A stretch of 62,736 nt of DNA, filler included, from an uncultured Thermoplasmatales archaeon (GTDB lineage: Archaea; Thermoplasmatota; E2; DHVEG-1): NCBI GenBank assembly GCA_964517155.1. It is 3 parts of 3 records of this genome, joined end to end, with 100 filler letters (N's around TTAATTAATTAA, not from the genome) between each part and the next. Parts side by side here need not be neighbours in the genome. Positions count along the whole stretch, not along the records: positions 1 to 23,677 come from CAZFAZ010000023.1; 2 more parts are not named here. One strand, given 5' to 3'. Position numbers and translations under genes: made by a program. The stretch's first letter is position 1. Every line of letters begins with the position of its first letter. Positions 3,565 to 11,007 of this stretch are shown in pieces. The notes beneath the pieces are model-generated. The model was not told the origin of the DNA, did no database searches, and saw nothing but the letters and a program-made list of their open reading frames with translations.

Positions 3565-4085
3565 TGGATGAAACACCATCTAGAGAACAATGTATACAGC
3601 TTCTTCGAGATGTAGGATGTTCTAATGAGGTCATCTGTCATTGTAAAGCAGTACGGGATGTAGCGGTACGTATCGCTCAAAAAGCTGGTGCACGCATTGA
3701 CCTTGTTGAAGCAGGTGCGTTATTACATGATATCGGGAGAGCTAAGACCAATACTATCCGACATGCTATCGAAGGAGTGAAGATAGCAAAGAGACTAGGA
3801 TTATCTCAGGAGATAATCGATATCATCGAACGTCATATCGGTGCAGGGATCTCAATAGATGTTGCACGTTCCTTAGGTCTTCCAAAAAAAGAATATATAC
3901 CTTTGACACTTGAGGAAAAGATAGTCTGTCATGCAGATAATCTTCTTGATGATTGTACCCGTCAACCAATAGAAAAAGAGATCGAAAAAGCGTTATCATC
4001 CGGTCATAACGAATACGCGGTACGGCTAGCTCGTCTTCACTGGGAGCTAAGTAAGTTATGCGGTATGGACCTTAACAAGATATAA
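3564..4085 (+). CDS. HD(IG)-domain phosphohydrolase, translationally coupled to trm56
   Basis: GALLHDIGR, ERHIGAG, EEKIVCHADN; TAATG stop/start overlap. Confidence 0.88.
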   Translation: MDETPSREQCIQLLRDVGCSNEVICHCKAVRDVAVRIAQKAGARIDLVEAGALLHDIGRAKTNTIRHAIEGVKIAKRLGLSQEIIDIIERHIGAGISIDVARSLGLPKKEYIPLTLEEKIVCHADNLLDDCTRQPIEKEIEKALSSGHNEYAVRLARLHWELSKLCGMDLNKI

Positions 4086-4155
4086 GATACACTAGAAAAA
4101 GATATATATGGTTTTTAGAATGTAGCCCTTACATCTGTTATGTTTTTTCATCTAT

Positions 4156-4240
4156 GCAGGGGTAGCCAAGCCTGGTCAACGGCGCAAGGTTGAGGGCCTT
4201 GTCCTGTAGAGGTCCGCGAGTTCAAATCTCGTCCCCTGCA
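4156..4240 (+). tRNA. tRNA-Leu(GAG)
   Basis: GCAGGGG..CCCCTGC-A acceptor stem, CAAGG-TTGAGGG-CCTTG anticodon arm, long variable arm, GTTCAAATC T-loop; 85 nt. Confidence 0.95.
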
Positions 4241-4299
4241 TTATTTTATTTATATAAGGTCACAAAATTACACAATAATTATAAGTATTGGATTTTAAA

Positions 4300-4383
4300 G
4301 TGCCCATACATAGTAATTGTTAATCTCGCATGGGCACAAAATTTAACAAAAAAAGATAACTTTATATAATGTTGTGCCCATAC
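4300..4383. promoter_or_regulatory. Promoter of fic (TATA box near 4361-4368) with GTGCCCAT repeats, probable operator
   Basis: ATGGGCACAA (4330-4339) and TTGTGCCCAT (4372-4381) form a perfect inverted repeat around TTTATATA; third copy GTGCCCATAC at 4300-4309. Confidence 0.55.
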
Positions 4384-4389
4384 TTAAAC

Positions 4390-5331
4390 ATGGCTTATTT
4401 AGAGAAAATTGAGAGGAATGGTAAAACTTATTACTACATCACAAAGAATTTTAGAATTAGTAACAAGAAATGGAGGAAAATAAGAAAATATATTGGTGAC
4501 AAACCACCTTCAAAGAAACAGACAAAGGAAGCAACAGAGGAAATTGAATCAGAGGCGTTAAAAAAAGGGTTCATGAAACCTGTTTCTAAAAATAAATATT
4601 TAACTGATGGTGAAACAGAAAAATTACAGGATTTAAAAGAAGTTTTTAAAAAATGGTACGGGAAGCTAAGCCTTATTGGTAGAAAAAAATATGAAGAAGA
4701 TTTTGTCGTTAGATTTACCTATAACTCAAATGCTATTGAAGGAAACCGCCTAAGTCTTCGTGAAACAAGTATGATTCTAACTGAGGATATAATTCCTGCT
4801 GGTGTCACCCCTAAGGATTATAATGAGGCGATAAACTCAAAAGACTGTTATGCGTTTATCAAAAAATATACGGGAGAATTCAATCAAAAATTTTTACTGC
4901 AAATTCATGAATTAATCACCAAAAATACTGACTGCGAAATGGTAGGTGATTACAGAGACCATGATGTTAGGATTTCTGGTTCTGAGTGGATTCCTCCCTC
5001 TTATAAAAAAGTTAAAGAAGAAATGAGAAAAGTATTCCAGTGGTACTACTCTGCCAAGAAGAAACTGCATCCTGTTGAATTAGGCGCTATTCTGCATAAC
5101 AAGTTAGTACAAATCCACCCATTCTCTGATGGCAACGGAAGGATATCAAGGGTTGTAATAAATTGGATATTAATGAAGAATAAATTTCCAATGTTTTACA
5201 TAGAAGTAAGAGATAAGATCAACTATTATGAAGCAGTTGAAGAAGGAGATAAAGGCAATGATGGAGCAATAGTGCATTACATTGTTAAAGTGATGATACA
5301 ACAACATACTTTCGAATCTAAAAAAGAGTAA
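4390..5331 (+). CDS. Fic family protein (AMPylase, class II with internal inhibitory motif)
   Basis: HPFSDGNGRISR Fic motif; SNAIEGN inhibitory motif; ATG 4390 fits a leaderless start from the TATA box. Confidence 0.92.
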   Translation: MAYLEKIERNGKTYYYITKNFRISNKKWRKIRKYIGDKPPSKKQTKEATEEIESEALKKGFMKPVSKNKYLTDGETEKLQDLKEVFKKWYGKLSLIGRKKYEEDFVVRFTYNSNAIEGNRLSLRETSMILTEDIIPAGVTPKDYNEAINSKDCYAFIKKYTGEFNQKFLLQIHELITKNTDCEMVGDYRDHDVRISGSEWIPPSYKKVKEEMRKVFQWYYSAKKKLHPVELGAILHNKLVQIHPFSDGNGRISRVVINWILMKNKFPMFYIEVRDKINYYEAVEEGDKGNDGAIVHYIVKVMIQQHTFESKKE

Positions 5332-5377
5332 TATATGATGGATTTTACTACTCGTTAGGATATCTTATTCAGCATTT

Positions 5378-5416
5378 TTTTACCGGTAAACTCGAGTCAA
5401 TATCTCGTCCCCTGCA
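5378..5416 (+). repeat. 39-bp att-like repeat, copy 1 (palindrome plus tRNA-Leu 3' end)
   Basis: TTTTACCGGTAAACTCGAGTCAATATCTCGTCCCCTGCA; 38/39 identical to 6046-6084. Confidence 0.92.
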
Positions 5417-5482
5417 TTTTTTATATCTGTTAAAGAAAGGTTTATAAATAATAAATTATATAGTAACTATAGGTGATATATA

Positions 5483-5710
5483 ATGGATAATCCAACTACA
5501 ATTCAATTAGACAAATCTGTTGTGAAATCCCTTAAACAGATTAGAGAACATCCAAGACAAACATATAACGAACTAATTTTGCGTATGATAGAACTTTTTA
5601 AAAATATAAAAAAGAGAAACCAATATGATGAGTTTCTTCATAAAATCCAACAACAGAAAATGAAGGAATTATGGGATAACAAAGAAGATGAGGCATGGGA
5701 AGATGCTTAA
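5483..5710 (+). CDS. Putative antitoxin (RHH-like, acidic C-terminus)
   Basis: TTIQL..TYNELILRMI N-terminus, ELWDNKEDEAWEDA tail; GGTGA SD; overlaps the toxin gene. Confidence 0.7.
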   Translation: MDNPTTIQLDKSVVKSLKQIREHPRQTYNELILRMIELFKNIKKRNQYDEFLHKIQQQKMKELWDNKEDEAWEDA

Positions 5711-6017
5711 ATCAGGTGATGTAGTAATCGCCCAAATACAATTTACAGATACTTTTGAAATAAAAAAGAGACCAGCACTTGTTCTTTTTGAAGAATTTGA
5801 TAATGTAGTAGTTGCAGGGATAACAAGTAATCTTGAAATGAAAGGAGTTATTCTTACAAAAAAAGAAGGAGCTATAAAAGATAGTGTGATAAAGTTAAAT
5901 TATATATTCACAATATCAAAATCAATGATATCAAAGACTTTGTTTCATCTCAGTAAAGAGAAAAAACGTATGATTTTTGATGAGTTAACAAAGCGATTAG
6001 ATATATTAAATAAATGA
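5703..6017 (+). CDS. PemK/MazF family toxin
   Basis: GDVV..FTD..KKRPALVL..VVVAGITS..DSVIKLNYIFTI pattern. Confidence 0.85.
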   Translation: MLKSGDVVIAQIQFTDTFEIKKRPALVLFEEFDNVVVAGITSNLEMKGVILTKKEGAIKDSVIKLNYIFTISKSMISKTLFHLSKEKKRMIFDELTKRLDILNK

Positions 6018-6045
6018 ATTGATACAACGGGAGAGAATCTATTTA

Positions 6046-6084
6046 TTTTACCGGTAAACTCGAGTCAGTATCTCGTCCCCTGCA
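6046..6084 (+). repeat. 39-bp att-like repeat, copy 2
   Basis: TTTTACCGGTAAACTCGAGTCAGTATCTCGTCCCCTGCA. Confidence 0.92.
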
Positions 6085-6103
6085 CTAATTTTTACAAAAT
6101 ACT

Positions 6104-7411
6104 CTAGGGTGTCAATCTTGTTCTATCCCTTGGAAATAAAATACATTCTCTAACGTTTTGAATATCCAGTAGTTCCATAAGAAAACGCTCAATACCAAAA
6201 CCAAAACCACCATGAGGCGGCATACCATATCTAAATGCTTTAAGATACGACTCAAAATCCTTAGGATTCAAATTACATTCTTTTATTCTCTCTTTTAAAA
6301 GCTCAACATTATGAATACGCTGACTACCAGAAGCAAGCTCTACTCCTTTACATTCTAAATCAAAACTTCTAGAAAGACTATCGCTTTCAGGCATTGTATA
6401 AAATGGTTTAGCCTTTAAAGGATACTTTGTAATAAAATAAAACTCAAAACCATCTTTTTGCATAATCTCTCCAAGTAATTTTTCTTCTTCAGAACCAAGA
6501 TCTATGCCCCAGTCCATTTTGCAGCCATTATCATTTAATTTTTTAACTGCATCATCATAAGATACACGTTTAAATGGAAGTTTTGGAACTTTAATATCTA
6601 AATTTAAAAGTTCTAATTCATCTTTGCAAGTGCTTGCTTTCTTCCACATACTATGAACAAGACCTTCAAGTATCTTCATAACATCTTCTTCACTTTGAAT
6701 AAAACTCATCTCAACATCAACAGCAGTACTTTCATTTAAATGACGACGAGTATTATGCTCTTCTGCTCTAAAATACCAAGTAATCTCATATACCCTATCA
6801 AAACCAGTAGCCATCATAGTTTGTTTATAAAGTTGAGGAGATTGAGCAAGAAAAGCTTCTTTTTCAAAATATTTAAACTTAAAAACCTCGGTTCCACCCT
6901 CAGAACTACTGGCATTAATATTAGACGTATGAATCTCAGTGAAATCCTGACTTTGCATATACTCATGAACTGCCTTTAAAACCTCATTTCTTATTTTAAA
7001 AATCGCTTGAATTTTAGGTTTTCTAAGGTCGATAAAACGATTATCAAGACGGGTATCCATCTCTGAATCTATTTTATCTACAACACCAAGCGGCAAAGGC
7101 GTCTCAGCTTTTCCTAAAAGCTTAAAACTCTCAGGGATAATCTCATAACCATTACGCGCTTTATCGCTTTTTTGACAAAGACCTGTAACTGAAATAACAG
7201 ATTCGCGTGGTAATTCTACAAGTTCTTTGAAAAGATCAGGATTTTCCTTTTTTAAACCTGTAACCTGCAGAGTACCTTTTCTATCACGTATGATAATAAA
7301 GGCGATATTGCCAATATTTCTAATATCTTCTAACCAACCGGCAACACTAATCTTTTTATTATATTCTTTACTTTTAACATCAACTGAATAATGACTTCTT
7401 AAAGCGTTCAT
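6104..7411 (-). CDS. aspS: Aspartyl-tRNA synthetase, archaeal type
   Basis: OB-fold N-terminus, RLDNRFIDLR, LAQSPQLYKQ, FRAEEH..RHLNE, GMPPHGGFGFGIER, FPRDRTRLTP. Confidence 0.95.
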   Translation of the reverse strand: MNALRSHYSVDVKSKEYNKKISVAGWLEDIRNIGNIAFIIIRDRKGTLQVTGLKKENPDLFKELVELPRESVISVTGLCQKSDKARNGYEIIPESFKLLGKAETPLPLGVVDKIDSEMDTRLDNRFIDLRKPKIQAIFKIRNEVLKAVHEYMQSQDFTEIHTSNINASSSEGGTEVFKFKYFEKEAFLAQSPQLYKQTMMATGFDRVYEITWYFRAEEHNTRRHLNESTAVDVEMSFIQSEEDVMKILEGLVHSMWKKASTCKDELELLNLDIKVPKLPFKRVSYDDAVKKLNDNGCKMDWGIDLGSEEEKLLGEIMQKDGFEFYFITKYPLKAKPFYTMPESDSLSRSFDLECKGVELASGSQRIHNVELLKERIKECNLNPKDFESYLKAFRYGMPPHGGFGFGIERFLMELLDIQNVRECILFPRDRTRLTP

Positions 7412-9082: not shown

Positions 9083-10951
9083 TTATCCCTTAACCACACC
9101 AAGAGGCTTAAGTTTTGCAACCTTTTTTGAAAGCCCGGCACCATGTGCAATTTCTACAACTTTTTGTATGTTTTTGTATGCACCAGGTGCTTCTTCAGCT
9201 GCAACTTTTATACTTGCAGGATGAACATAAATGCCTATGTCTCCCAACTCTTTTACTATTTGTTCACCACGCCAATTTTTCAAAGCCTGATGACGAGACA
9301 TAACTCTTCCAGCACCATGACAAGTCGAACAAAACGTTTCTTTTGATTCCTTCGTACCTTTCAAAAGATAGCTTTCTGTACCCATATCACCAGGAATAAT
9401 TACGGGTTGGCCTATATCGCGATATTTAAGAGGAATTTCTTTTTTATCTGGGCCAAATGCACGGGTGGCACCTTTGCGATGAACACAAACCTTTATTTTT
9501 TTACCATCAACTGCATGCTCCTCGATTTTTGCAATATTATGACAAACATCATAAACTATATGCATACCCATATTTTCTGCAGAGTCATTTAAAACTTTTT
9601 CAAAAGATTCACGAACCCAATGAGTAATAAGCTGCCGGTTTGCCCATGCAAAATTTGCAGCACAAGCCATAGCCTTCAAATAATTTTGTCCTTCATTAGA
9701 ATTAATAGGTGCACAAGCAAGTTGACGATCAGGAAGCCAGATATTATATTTCTTAACAGCATTTTCAAGAACCTGCAGATGATCTGTACAAACCTGATGG
9801 CCGAACCCTCTTGAACCTGTATGAATCATAACACAAATCTGACCAATATCTGTAATACCATACGCTTTTGCAGCCTGGTTATCATATATTTCATCTACTT
9901 TTTGAATTTCAAGAAAATGATTACCTGCGCCAAGAGAGCCAACCTGTGAAAGACCACGTTGTACTGCTCTATTAGATACATAAGCAGGATCGGCGAAATC
10001 AATGCAACCATTTTCCTCAAGAAAACTTGGATCTTCTGTCCAGCCATATCCTTTTTCAACAGGATATTTTGCACCAGTTTTCATAATTTCTTCAAGTTCT
10101 TTTTTGCTGAATCTGATTCTAGCTTTAGAACCTAAACCAGATGGAACATTCATAAACATTTCATCTACAATAGTATGGATTTTATTTTTGTCTAAACCAG
10201 AAATATTTAAATTTGTTTTAACAAGTCTGATGCCGCAATTTGAAACAACAAAATTATTTGCAATAAAATTATGAAGAGGGTTAGAAACACTAATATCAAA
10301 AACTTCTTTTATTTTTTTTGGCTTGATACTTTTTACAACATCAAAATTAAACCTTTCATCATAATATCCAATTAAGTCTCCTACTCTTATGTATTTTAAT
10401 TCCTTCATTCCATCGGGGGTAAAAATTGGATGTTCTGAGGTTAACTGAAGTTTATAATTTTTTATGGTTGTTATTTCAAAAGTTTTATCTATTTTTTTAA
10501 GTGAAAAAAAAATTCTAGATTTTTCTATTTTATTTTTTAAATGGTTAAAAACAAAAACGTTGTCTTTTATATTTAAATTTTTTATTTCCTCAAAACTTCC
10601 ATCTCCCATTAATATTTTAGTATCCCCTGAAATGCAGTTAATATCAAAACCTACTCCACCTGGAGAAACCACTCCATTTTCAAAATCTGTTGCTGCAACA
10701 CCGCCTATCGAGAAACCATATCCCCAATGGATATCAGGCATAGCCATTGATTTTCCAACAATTCCTGGTAGCATAGCAACATTTGCAACCTGCTCTGGAG
10801 CGTTATCTTCACGTAGTAAAGGAATCATTGTTTCATCAGCATAAATTATTGCTGAAGTTTTCATTTTAAGATTATTTTTTTCTCCTTTGTAATCTTTTGG
10901 TATTTCGTATCTATATGCATCTATTTTTTTCAAAGGTCCATTCCAGGTCAT
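9083..10951 (-). CDS. rtcB: RNA ligase RtcB, intein-containing
   Basis: MPDIHWGYGFSIGG, GGVGFDIN/CG, GSLGAGNHFLE, HTGSRG, HRKGATR, HGAGR, EEAPGAYK. Confidence 0.96.
   Translation of the reverse strand: MTWNGPLKKIDAYRYEIPKDYKGEKNNLKMKTSAIIYADETMIPLLREDNAPEQVANVAMLPGIVGKSMAMPDIHWGYGFSIGGVAATDFENGVVSPGGVGFDINCISGDTKILMGDGSFEEIKNLNIKDNVFVFNHLKNKIEKSRIFFSLKKIDKTFEITTIKNYKLQLTSEHPIFTPDGMKELKYIRVGDLIGYYDERFNFDVVKSIKPKKIKEVFDISVSNPLHNFIANNFVVSNCGIRLVKTNLNISGLDKNKIHTIVDEMFMNVPSGLGSKARIRFSKKELEEIMKTGAKYPVEKGYGWTEDPSFLEENGCIDFADPAYVSNRAVQRGLSQVGSLGAGNHFLEIQKVDEIYDNQAAKAYGITDIGQICVMIHTGSRGFGHQVCTDHLQVLENAVKKYNIWLPDRQLACAPINSNEGQNYLKAMACAANFAWANRQLITHWVRESFEKVLNDSAENMGMHIVYDVCHNIAKIEEHAVDGKKIKVCVHRKGATRAFGPDKKEIPLKYRDIGQPVIIPGDMGTESYLLKGTKESKETFCSTCHGAGRVMSRHQALKNWRGEQIVKELGDIGIYVHPASIKVAAEEAPGAYKNIQKVVEIAHGAGLSKKVAKLKPLGVVKG
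10238..10636 (-). mobile_element. Mini-intein (133 aa, no homing endonuclease) in RtcB
   Basis: Begins CISGDTKILM, block B TSEHPIF, ends HNFIANNFVVSN followed by Cys; splits the conserved DIN|CG motif. Confidence 0.93.
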
Positions 10952-11007
10952 CAATATCTTACAAATACTAACTATGTAAAAAGATTTTGTATAAAATAAA
11001 TATCTTT

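Follow-up and report, generated by a model that had tools for sequence, protein, structure and literature searches.

Cis-mobilizable elements (CIMEs), known from the ICESt1/ICESt3 family of Streptococcus, are integrase-less units which are bounded by attachment (att) sites and become stacked by accretion. Tandem integrative islands anchored on a tRNA-type gene reportedly occur at ssrA in Dehalococcoides, and the IMEX elements and pdif modules of Acinetobacter plasmids carry sites that mimic dif and use the host recombinases XerC/D. Here a region is described in which the 3' end of a tRNA-Leu(GAG) gene is followed by two small gene units, one encoding a Fic-domain protein and the other an antitoxin-like protein and MazF. 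It is part of a 62,736-nt stretch of DNA from an uncultured Thermoplasmatales archaeon, the whole of which is referred to as the window. With a probability of about 65%, the region represents a stack of two integrase-less mobile cassettes, serially inserted at the 3' end of tRNA-Leu(GAG) by an integrase supplied in trans. Each cassette ends in an attR-type junction, in which an element-side arm with the box TTTACCGGTAAA, often accompanied by ACAGGAGAAAA at position -20, is fused to the tRNA 3' end. Among the genomes searched, this site family is confined to one family of uncultured sediment Thermoplasmata.

CIMEs provide the closest concept, since they too lack an integrase and have as their borders the att sites of a relative that encodes one. 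Such sites, in the absence of recombination genes, are also found here, as judged from the attR of an integrase-bearing element in a relative (G072) and from the box-like sequences (box') next to tRNA genes on six contigs. CIMEs are, however, few and larger deletion derivatives tied to conjugative elements, whereas the present system comprises a large pool of mini-cassettes (68 in the sample) across genera, with at least two tRNA-Leu core types. The IMEX and pdif modules resemble the cassettes in being small and recombinase-less, often with toxin-antitoxin genes, and in carrying sites for a trans-acting Xer-type enzyme, but the site described here imitates the end of a tRNA, and the enzyme that fits best as a candidate is encoded on a mobile element. 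Insertion at a tRNA-type 3' end, partial tRNA copies between the units, outward displacement of older units by newer ones, adaptive or defensive cargo and degenerate remnants are shared with the tycheposons of Prochlorococcus and, reportedly, with the Dehalococcoides islands. Tycheposons are stacked elements separated by partial tRNAs, which were found by integrase screening; most carry replication genes, and their remnants include integrase fragments (10.1101/2020.12.28.424599). Unlike the tycheposons so described, the cassettes are archaeal, commonly measure 0.4-1.5 kb with one or two genes, and combine the lack of an integrase or integrase fragment with an intact conserved att arm.

Integrons, including archaeal ones, offer a further parallel. 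In integrons the cassettes are small, mostly contain one gene each with its own site and frequently carry toxin-antitoxin genes, integrase-less arrays (clusters of attC sites lacking integron integrases, CALINs) are common, and the recombinase is Xer-related; the text of the report on archaeal integrons mentions neither tRNA nor Thermoplasmata (10.1101/2022.02.06.479319). In contrast to integrons, the arrays described here have neither IntI nor attI, their sites are duplex att-type junctions and not attC hairpins, the platform is a tRNA 3' end, the cassettes appear to have promoters of their own, and autonomous integrase-bearing elements use the same site. No integron integrase was found beside the array, and the contigs of the window gave no PF00589 match. 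By analogy the arrays can be called integron-like in their logic; they are not integrons. The preliminary description of this DNA had proposed serial insertion at the tRNA by a recombinase acting in trans. The common end site for unrelated cargo, the variable arrays, the closer likeness of cassettes than of flanks between lineages and the lack of an integrase in the arrays speak for this part of the proposal, whereas the likeness to integrons is retained only as an analogy. A literature search, which mostly covered texts outside subscription journals and without supplements, yielded no published description of such archaeal arrays; new here are the extended site, the contrast in identity between cassettes and flanks, and the candidate integrase family.

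The window is composed of three contigs of one metagenome-assembled genome (MAG; 1.585 Mb, 91 contigs, 90.8% complete), namely C23 (positions 1-23677) followed by C24 and C28. Throughout, G### denotes genomes (G000 being that of the window), L### loci and C## contigs. The array and its borders are as follows.

4155..4241, plus strand: intact tRNA-Leu(GAG) gene (ARAGORN; Rfam tRNA, 47.7 bits)
4241..5416, plus strand: cassette 1 (1176 bp), Fic gene and end site, delimited by repeat spacing
5378..5416, plus strand: end site 1, consisting of the box TTTACCGGTAAA (5379-5390), CTCGAG, TCAAT and the 15-nt tRNA 3' end
5417..6084, plus strand: cassette 2 (668 bp), DUF7557 antitoxin-like gene, MazF gene and end site, delimited by repeat spacing
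6027..6037, plus strand: degenerate copy ACGGGAGAGAA of the arm motif (consensus ACAGGAGAAAA), located 20 nt ahead of the box in the MazF cassette
6046..6084, plus strand: end site 2, consisting of the box (6047-6058), the TCAGT variant and the core, abutting the chromosomal flank
6104..7411, minus strand: aspS, encoding the archaeal AspRS (Pfam), a conserved chromosomal gene which bounds the array

The tRNA gene, whose DNA fold is cloverleaf-like (z -2.8), anchors the array and forms its attL side. Its last 15 nt (ATCTCGTCCCCTGCA, 4226-4240) are the core common to both cassette ends and recur at 5402-5416 and 6070-6084. At up to two mismatches this 15-mer has three matches in the whole window, a number which none of 100 shuffles reached. 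Both downstream copies belong to a 39-mer (5378-5416 and 6046-6084; shuffle mean 0.00), which is built from the palindrome TTTACCGGTAAA, 11 nt and the 15-nt tRNA 3' end and differs between the two sites by a single A/G exchange. The spacings of the repeat along the array are 1176 and 668 nt. Thus the recurrence of the tRNA end, its extension to 39 bp with one mismatch and the two minimal modules, all reported in the preliminary description, are borne out, the modules by repeat spacing together with Pfam matches. The further features named there, i.e. the palindromes TTTACCGGTAAA and ACTCGAGT, the dyad CGAG-N7-CTCG and the loop change from TTCAAAT to TCAATAT/TCAGTAT, can all be read in the sequence. 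As in tRNA-targeting integrative elements, a direct repeat of the tRNA 3' end lies distal to an intact tRNA gene. The order tRNA-Leu ... aspS is kept in G003, G050, G054, G001 and metagenome contigs.

The site recurs well beyond this genome. In its window variant it was detected, at up to three mismatches, in 13 of 118 genomes of the order, the window's own included; the other twelve all belong to the same family, f1 (12/107), and the two sister families had none (0/10). The general form of the site is TTT[A/G]CC[G/A][G/T]TAAA, 6 nt, TTCAA or TCAAT, and ATCTCGTCCCCTGCA. At up to two mismatches this pattern occurs in 42 of the 107 other f1 genomes (43/108 with the window's own), ten sister families in the class Thermoplasmata (89 genomes) had no match, and the reversed pattern, used as a control, was absent from all genomes searched. 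These counts understate the spread: G018 scored zero and nevertheless contains two decayed sites behind its tRNA-Leu. An exact scan of the genome_contigs collection retrieved 15 stretches, all titled as Thermoplasmatales, Thermoplasmata or Thermoplasmatota MAGs, among them two closed chromosomes and SG8-52-3. In metagenomes 118 stretches match the site pattern, of which 107 loci (447 kb) were analysed, while scans of viral_contigs returned no match either for the pattern or for a 21-mer of the tRNA-Leu 3' end. The check suggested earlier, a search for the 39-mer in the genome and its relatives, has thereby been carried out, and the site recurs across genera.

The 107 loci contain 132 distinct site instances, with the box TTTACCGGTAAA in 96 and the loop part TTCAA in 83 or TCAAT in 40. 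Alignment of 126 instances revealed that the box is preceded by a purine motif (consensus aAcAggAgAAAac) and the core followed by a T-run, and as far as sequence conservation can tell the site is longer than 39 nt. In 39 of the 68 cassettes the motif ACAGGAGAAAA (up to two mismatches) precedes the box at a distance of 18-22 nt, in most cases 20 nt; its background is 56 matches in 106,742 cassette-interior positions, i.e. about 0.03 chance hits per 50 nt. The left ends are also patterned. Fourteen of the 68 cassettes start with TTTTTT(A/G)ACC-ATTTTT-ACAGGAGAAAA, which puts the motif at +15 to +17, counted from the left end, and about ten others, read by eye, start with a box-like palindrome (TTTAC-N4-GTAAA) followed by TTTTCAGGAAAA; the automatic count of left ends mostly re-found the former type and not the latter. 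As single-stranded DNA, both end sites of the window fold no better than shuffled sequences on either strand (z -0.05 to +0.81), with only the 4-bp stem of the T-arm being formed, and therefore the sites are not like attC hairpins.

Arrays of these sites vary in length, content and order. On 23 metagenome contigs, and likewise in several MAGs, tRNA-Leu(GAG) is followed by one to four sites, and SG8-52-3 contains five sites within 6.1 kb. The 68 distinct cassettes range from 333 to 6685 bp (median about 1.18 kb) and 40 of them do not exceed 1.3 kb; their 157 open reading frames (ORFs) fall into 108 groups. Counted from the tRNA, the MazF cassette is the leading one in L114 and G018, the second in the window and the third in L056, and a cassette with HEPN and nucleotidyltransferase (MNT) genes leads the array in G003 and lies second in L081. 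Between tRNA-Leu and aspS the same-genus relative G001 has a single 324-aa ORF without recognisable site, while G003 has the HEPN/MNT cassette and four more genes, including a DUF1761 gene which in G100 forms a site-bounded cassette. The comparison of gene content between tRNA-Leu and aspS, also suggested in the preliminary description, therefore reveals that cassette number, order and content vary among relatives.

The cassettes are, moreover, more similar between lineages than their surroundings. For the MazF cassette of the window, copies in 14 loci show 82-94% identity, as compared with 72-80% for aspS and 63-68% for the upstream flank of the contigs concerned. In L116/117 the cassette reaches 93.8%, as against 74.1% and 66% for the flanks. 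In L067, L036 and L110, copies of the Fic cassette show 83-88% identity. On this sequence comparison, the cassettes move as units between lineages. A contig from an independent run (X3) carries the tRNA, Fic and MazF in this order at about 95% identity with non-matching flanks and is read as another organism.

A second core, ATCCCTTCCCCTGCA, is fused to the same boxes in many genomes and corresponds in relatives to the 3' end of tRNA-Leu(TAA/CAG/CAA). The arm TTTGCCATTAAA-CTGGTG-TTCAA is found with either core, and in L090 the two core types are only 120 nt apart (sites at 66-261). On C79 of the window's genome the left end of a short Fic/Doc cassette follows a site with the second core, and elsewhere this cassette follows sites of the GAG type. 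Hence cassettes appear to pass between tRNA-Leu loci. Sites with the second core or partial tRNA ends are present in the window's genome at C79:92-791, C42:42077-42498, C37:61-98, C3:26221-26258 and C32:7-21, and this genome therefore holds more such arrays.

The absence of a recombinase from the window, as stated in the preliminary description, holds for the tyrosine and serine families; the three PF00589 and two PF00239 genes of the genome are located on C85, C32, C83 and C59. Neither cassette of the window encodes an integrase, and PF00589 was found neither among the 108 representatives of cassette ORFs, nor among 77 ORFs near sites in MAGs, nor among 37 ORFs upstream of sites without a nearby tRNA. 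These 37 comprise one DDE transposase and ordinary genes such as an SRP54-type GTPase and an Mnh antiporter. An integrase of their own is present only in related elements, in G006, G072, G099, G013, G076 and G057. The first of these came to light in a list of the tRNA-Leu(GAG) genes of the family, which covers 77 of the 108 genomes: on G006:C31 the tRNA-Leu(GAG) gene is followed, after 2 nt, by TTTTCACCGGTAAAA (box'), an ORF of 181 aa (orf181) and a 313-aa tyrosine recombinase with a SAM-like N-domain. The latter scores 157 bits on the NCBIfam model XerA_Arch (cut-off 220), and among solved structures XerA (5hxy, E 6e-15) is its best match; by sequence, the G006-type integrase can be classed as Xer-like.

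Homologues of this enzyme (E <= 1e-8) are encoded in 30 of the 108 family genomes, and the order tRNA, orf181, integrase on one strand recurs among them. Those with at least 55% identity mostly lie at tRNA-Leu genes, i.e. at the intron-bearing tRNA-Leu(TAA) in G076, at tRNA-Leu(CAG) in G099, at tRNA-Leu(CAA) in G072 and G013:C50, and at a Leu-type 3' end in G057; two lie at tRNA-Ser(gga), and G013:C140 starts at a contig end. More distant homologues are found at tRNA-Ser, tRNA-Arg and tRNA-Gly. Each tRNA-Leu-linked integrase has a box-like sequence 2-4 nt past the tRNA end. The box' of G013:C50 (TTTAATGGCAAA) reads on the opposite strand as TTTGCCATTAAA, a variant of the site box, and thus box and box' form an inverted pair around the core. 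The element on G072:C27 is complete: it spans about 9.4 kb and comprises attL with box', orf181, integrase, cargo and an attR of the sequence TACCGGTAT-TTTGGTG-CTCAAAT-CCCTTCCCCTGCA, which is a member of the site family. On G013:C140 the arm motif and box follow 3.2 kb after the integrase at the standard 20-nt spacing, without a core. Because the part of the site preceding the tRNA end is the att arm of integrase-carrying elements in relatives, the cassettes are best read as integrase-less satellites or derivatives of tRNA-Leu-integrating elements and not as a separate invention. Accordingly, the 24-nt non-tRNA prefix of the preliminary description, which is indeed conserved in both sites, is reinterpreted as the element-side arm of conventional integrase-carrying elements. 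Sites occur in 12 of the 16 genomes with close integrase homologues as compared with 30 of the remaining 91; this co-occurrence is loose support, given that related genomes are no independent samples and that tRNAs other than tRNA-Leu are also targets of this integrase family.

Five copies of orf181 share 45-58% identity and have no significant match in Pfam or NCBIfam. A structural model (pLDDT 66.7, pTM 0.33) gave no Foldseek match against the PDB at E <= 0.001, winged-helix regulators appearing only at E > 5; the C-terminal helix-strand pattern of this low-confidence model would be compatible with a winged helix.

Other candidates for the mover were considered and rejected. P0001-type integrases are encoded in 82 of the 108 family genomes; their top 30 loci are never at tRNA-Leu and lack the box, the tRNAs being those for Glu, Arg, Val and Pro, with Ser, Gln and Lys as neighbours. 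In this family (L183-L212) the 3' end of the integrase gene abuts or overlaps tRNA-Glu, Arg, Val or Pro in convergent orientation, and two integrases of the window's genome are placed in the same way, on C83 at tRNA-Pro (P0001 family) and on C85 at tRNA-Arg (Xer-like). IS110 occurs as a single copy in one cassette and is missing from the window's genome. A hidden recombinase among the unknown ORFs was likewise rejected: three ORFs of 450-490 aa beside sites, in L024, L026 and L031, do not resemble one another (19-26% identity, gappy alignment). As a separate observation, the last 1.5 kb or so of G000:C59 contain a sequence like a tRNA 5' half, followed by ACAGGAGAAAA, a small opposite-strand ORF, a 342-aa serine recombinase and a 941-aa ORF, and this end may be another element integrated in a tRNA gene.

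From these features a mechanism can be proposed. A circular cassette with box, tRNA-like core and T-rich left arm would recombine with the tRNA 3' end, the reaction being performed by the Xer-like integrase, which an autonomous element would supply in trans. Each insertion would restore the tRNA, bring a T-run behind it and push older cassettes downstream. The boxes and arm motifs could serve as protein-binding arms, perhaps for orf181. As to the position of the crossover, the combination of one arm with two cores argues for an exchange at or left of the border between T-loop and stem. The TCAAT variant matches the tRNA only from ATCTCG onward, which argues for an exchange inside that stretch, situated near the midpoint between box and box'.

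Several observations weigh against mobile cassettes served by an integrase in trans. No G006-type integrase was found in the window's genome (90.8% complete), the best identity, to the C85 enzyme, being 21-24%, nor was orf181; the two cassettes of the window would therefore be stranded at present. Integrase and orf181 were likewise not found in the 107 metagenome array loci, so that the link between enzyme and cassettes is drawn from motifs shared by six contigs of five genomes. Among the integrase-bearing elements only that of G072 is complete with both ends, and its attR lacks the arm motif. If the crossover took place in the T-loop, the TCAAT and TCAGT sites of the window could not recombine with the tRNA. 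Among assembled contigs, terminal overlaps indicative of circular forms were seen in none of the 107 loci. A low-depth contig (X5) joins the tRNA directly to the MazF cassette (joint 4243->5419, depth 2.85, 24-nt side); taken as an excision product it was rejected, since it probably represents another organism with the MazF cassette at rank 1. The closed genome G009, where sites occur far away from any tRNA, has sites at five places, none of which adjoins tRNA-Leu(GAG), and an additional decayed site about 1.8 kb behind that gene; rearrangement between sites is a possible cause of this scatter. Finally, the depth differs on the two sides of tRNA-Leu: in the run that is probably the source, a piece matching 3600-4184 exactly has a depth of 9.8, and the cassettes and aspS (4213-7000) have depths of 95-115, so that C23 may combine two strains joined at this gene. 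The order tRNA, cassettes, aspS is unaffected by such a chimera because pieces of about 95-115 depth cover it and relatives share it. A second tRNA-Leu(GAG) gene is located at G000:C7:20713-20798, with a syntenic, strongly diverged upstream region (HD protein, tRNA-Val), 35 nt before the contig end, which would fit either the presence of two related strains in the MAG or a break of the assembly at the array.

Some of these points would also be expected if the arrays were dead relics, that is, internally deleted integrase elements which are inherited vertically, undergo only homologous reshuffling between repeated tRNA ends and have no present mobility. We regard this explanation as unlikely. 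Integrase-bearing relatives with the same box motif exist, decayed cores are numerous (G018, G054, G009, L039), and the window's own cassettes, both with poor left arms and that of Fic without the arm motif ACAGGAGAAAA upstream of its end site, may indeed be inactive in a genome that has no matching integrase. However, deleted elements fit poorly with the metagenome DNA. No fragment of the tRNA-Leu-type integrase or of orf181 was detected in its 447 kb of array-bearing sequence, where tblastn with 21 valid family integrase queries gave only one N-terminal fragment behind a site; this fragment, in L090 (756-1433), is of the P0001 type and lies 500 nt behind the site. In five site-rich genomes an integrase is present on one of 18 site-bearing contigs, at 10.6 kb from the site. 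Vertical inheritance is further opposed by cassettes that are 82-94% identical between lineages with flanks of 63-80%, by the occurrence of the same cassette at different ranks and behind two tRNA-Leu cores, and by the small size of 40 of the 68 cassettes, which have one or two genes and an intact site.

Still less probable is a dedicated integron-like platform run by a housekeeping recombinase of the host, XerA-like, as with the IMEX and pdif modules. XerA is widespread in archaea, and the restriction of the sites to one family is difficult to reconcile with such an enzyme. The abundance of the arrays would fit, as their presence in 43 of 108 family genomes makes them far commoner than tRNA-Leu-linked integrases (six contigs, five genomes), and so would the Xer-like nature of the candidate integrase itself, which stays below the cut-off of the XerA model at 157 bits, and of the C85 enzyme of the window's genome, which scores 171 bits. 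The site consensus, taken by itself, has no visible 11-6-11 layout like that of dif; within the box palindrome there is no spacer, and about 29 nt lie between the boxes. The view that the repeats arose in assembly, or represent a structured RNA or a terminator unrelated to recombination, is highly improbable and disfavoured, for despite the frequent breaks of MAG contigs at repeats (C7 ends 35 nt past its tRNA-Leu), the depth shift across the tRNA and the T-runs after sites, the same junctions occur in independent assemblies, closed chromosomes and many metagenomes, Rfam matches only tRNA, and the single-strand fold is no better than that of shuffles.

Beyond serial insertion in trans, the data can tentatively be taken further, to a true cassette-exchange system on tRNA-Leu genes, although this extended claim as a whole must be called doubtful. 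It would be an independent analogue of integrons with an element-supplied integrase, a box-binding partner and a communal cassette pool shared between genera, in which a minimal cassette, a gene with an att site of about 60-100 bp, passes in and out of several tRNA-Leu genes. The arrays would then be the main port of this lineage for toxin-antitoxin, defence, transport and hydrolase genes. Little is known of gene exchange in uncultured sediment archaea, and serial insertion in trans, if this reading holds, would provide a simple, testable route: single genes packed with a short docking site, stacked at tRNA-Leu and passed between genera. Integrons and the tRNA-island elements of marine bacteria would thereby gain a tRNA-based counterpart in archaea, and the breaks of MAG assemblies at tRNA-Leu in these organisms would be explained. 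The two candidate enzymes are open to cloning and assay, and the short site may be of use as a marker when sediment metagenomes are searched for accessory genes.

The genes of the two cassettes in the window are the following.

4298..4381, strand not assigned: three copies of GTGCCCAT(AC), two of them inverted around a TATA-like box (repeat and inverted-repeat search)
4369..5331, plus strand: Fic-domain protein (Pfam PF02661, 79.4 bits), with the likely start ATG at 4391
5483..5710, plus strand: DUF7557 protein of 75 aa, presumed antitoxin (Pfam PF24434, 28.8 bits)
5688..6017, plus strand: PemK/MazF-like toxin of 109 aa, or 104 aa from the second ATG (Pfam PF02452, 35.4 bits)

The Fic protein holds HPFSDGNGR, which we take to be the catalytic motif, with the presumably self-inhibitory motif SNAIEG upstream. 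The copies of GTGCCCAT(AC) before its gene form a putative promoter/operator and look like an operator for autoregulation. In cassette 2 the DUF7557 and MazF genes overlap by 23 nt, and DUF7557 is paired with MazF in all nine cassettes of that type; this is the layout of a type II toxin-antitoxin (MazEF-like) pair, with MazF as the predicted toxin. As judged by eye from TATA-like boxes about 25-40 nt upstream of the start codons, the cassettes appear to have putative promoters of their own.

Pfam matches of the 108 representatives illustrate the range of cargo. Toxin-type genes comprise DUF7557 with MazF (9 cassettes), ParE (4), HEPN with nucleotidyltransferase (3), short Fic/Doc (3) and long Fic (2). 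Enzymes include AAA_14/DUF4143 ATPases (3), a nitroreductase and methyltransferases, and further cassettes carry a NikR-ZnuABC set, an MFS transporter, peptidases C1/C25/S8/S15, NosD/PKD proteins and a CN-hydrolase. A possible rhodopsin cassette is seen in L042 (G009:C1, about 319.4-324.4 kb), where an intact site is directly preceded by a gene for heliorhodopsin (PF18761, 331 bits) and a DDE transposase lies in the vicinity.

Two additional observations were made in this genome. On G000:C49:24977-26257, two genes of the ribbon-helix-helix (RHH) type contain in-phase GGTAAACC repeats, an octamer which includes GGTAAA, the half-site of the box palindrome. RtcB (window 9083-10954, minus strand) has 623 aa as compared with 489 aa in G003 and G054, and the additional block, which starts with CISGDTKILM and ends with VVSN, looks like an intein.

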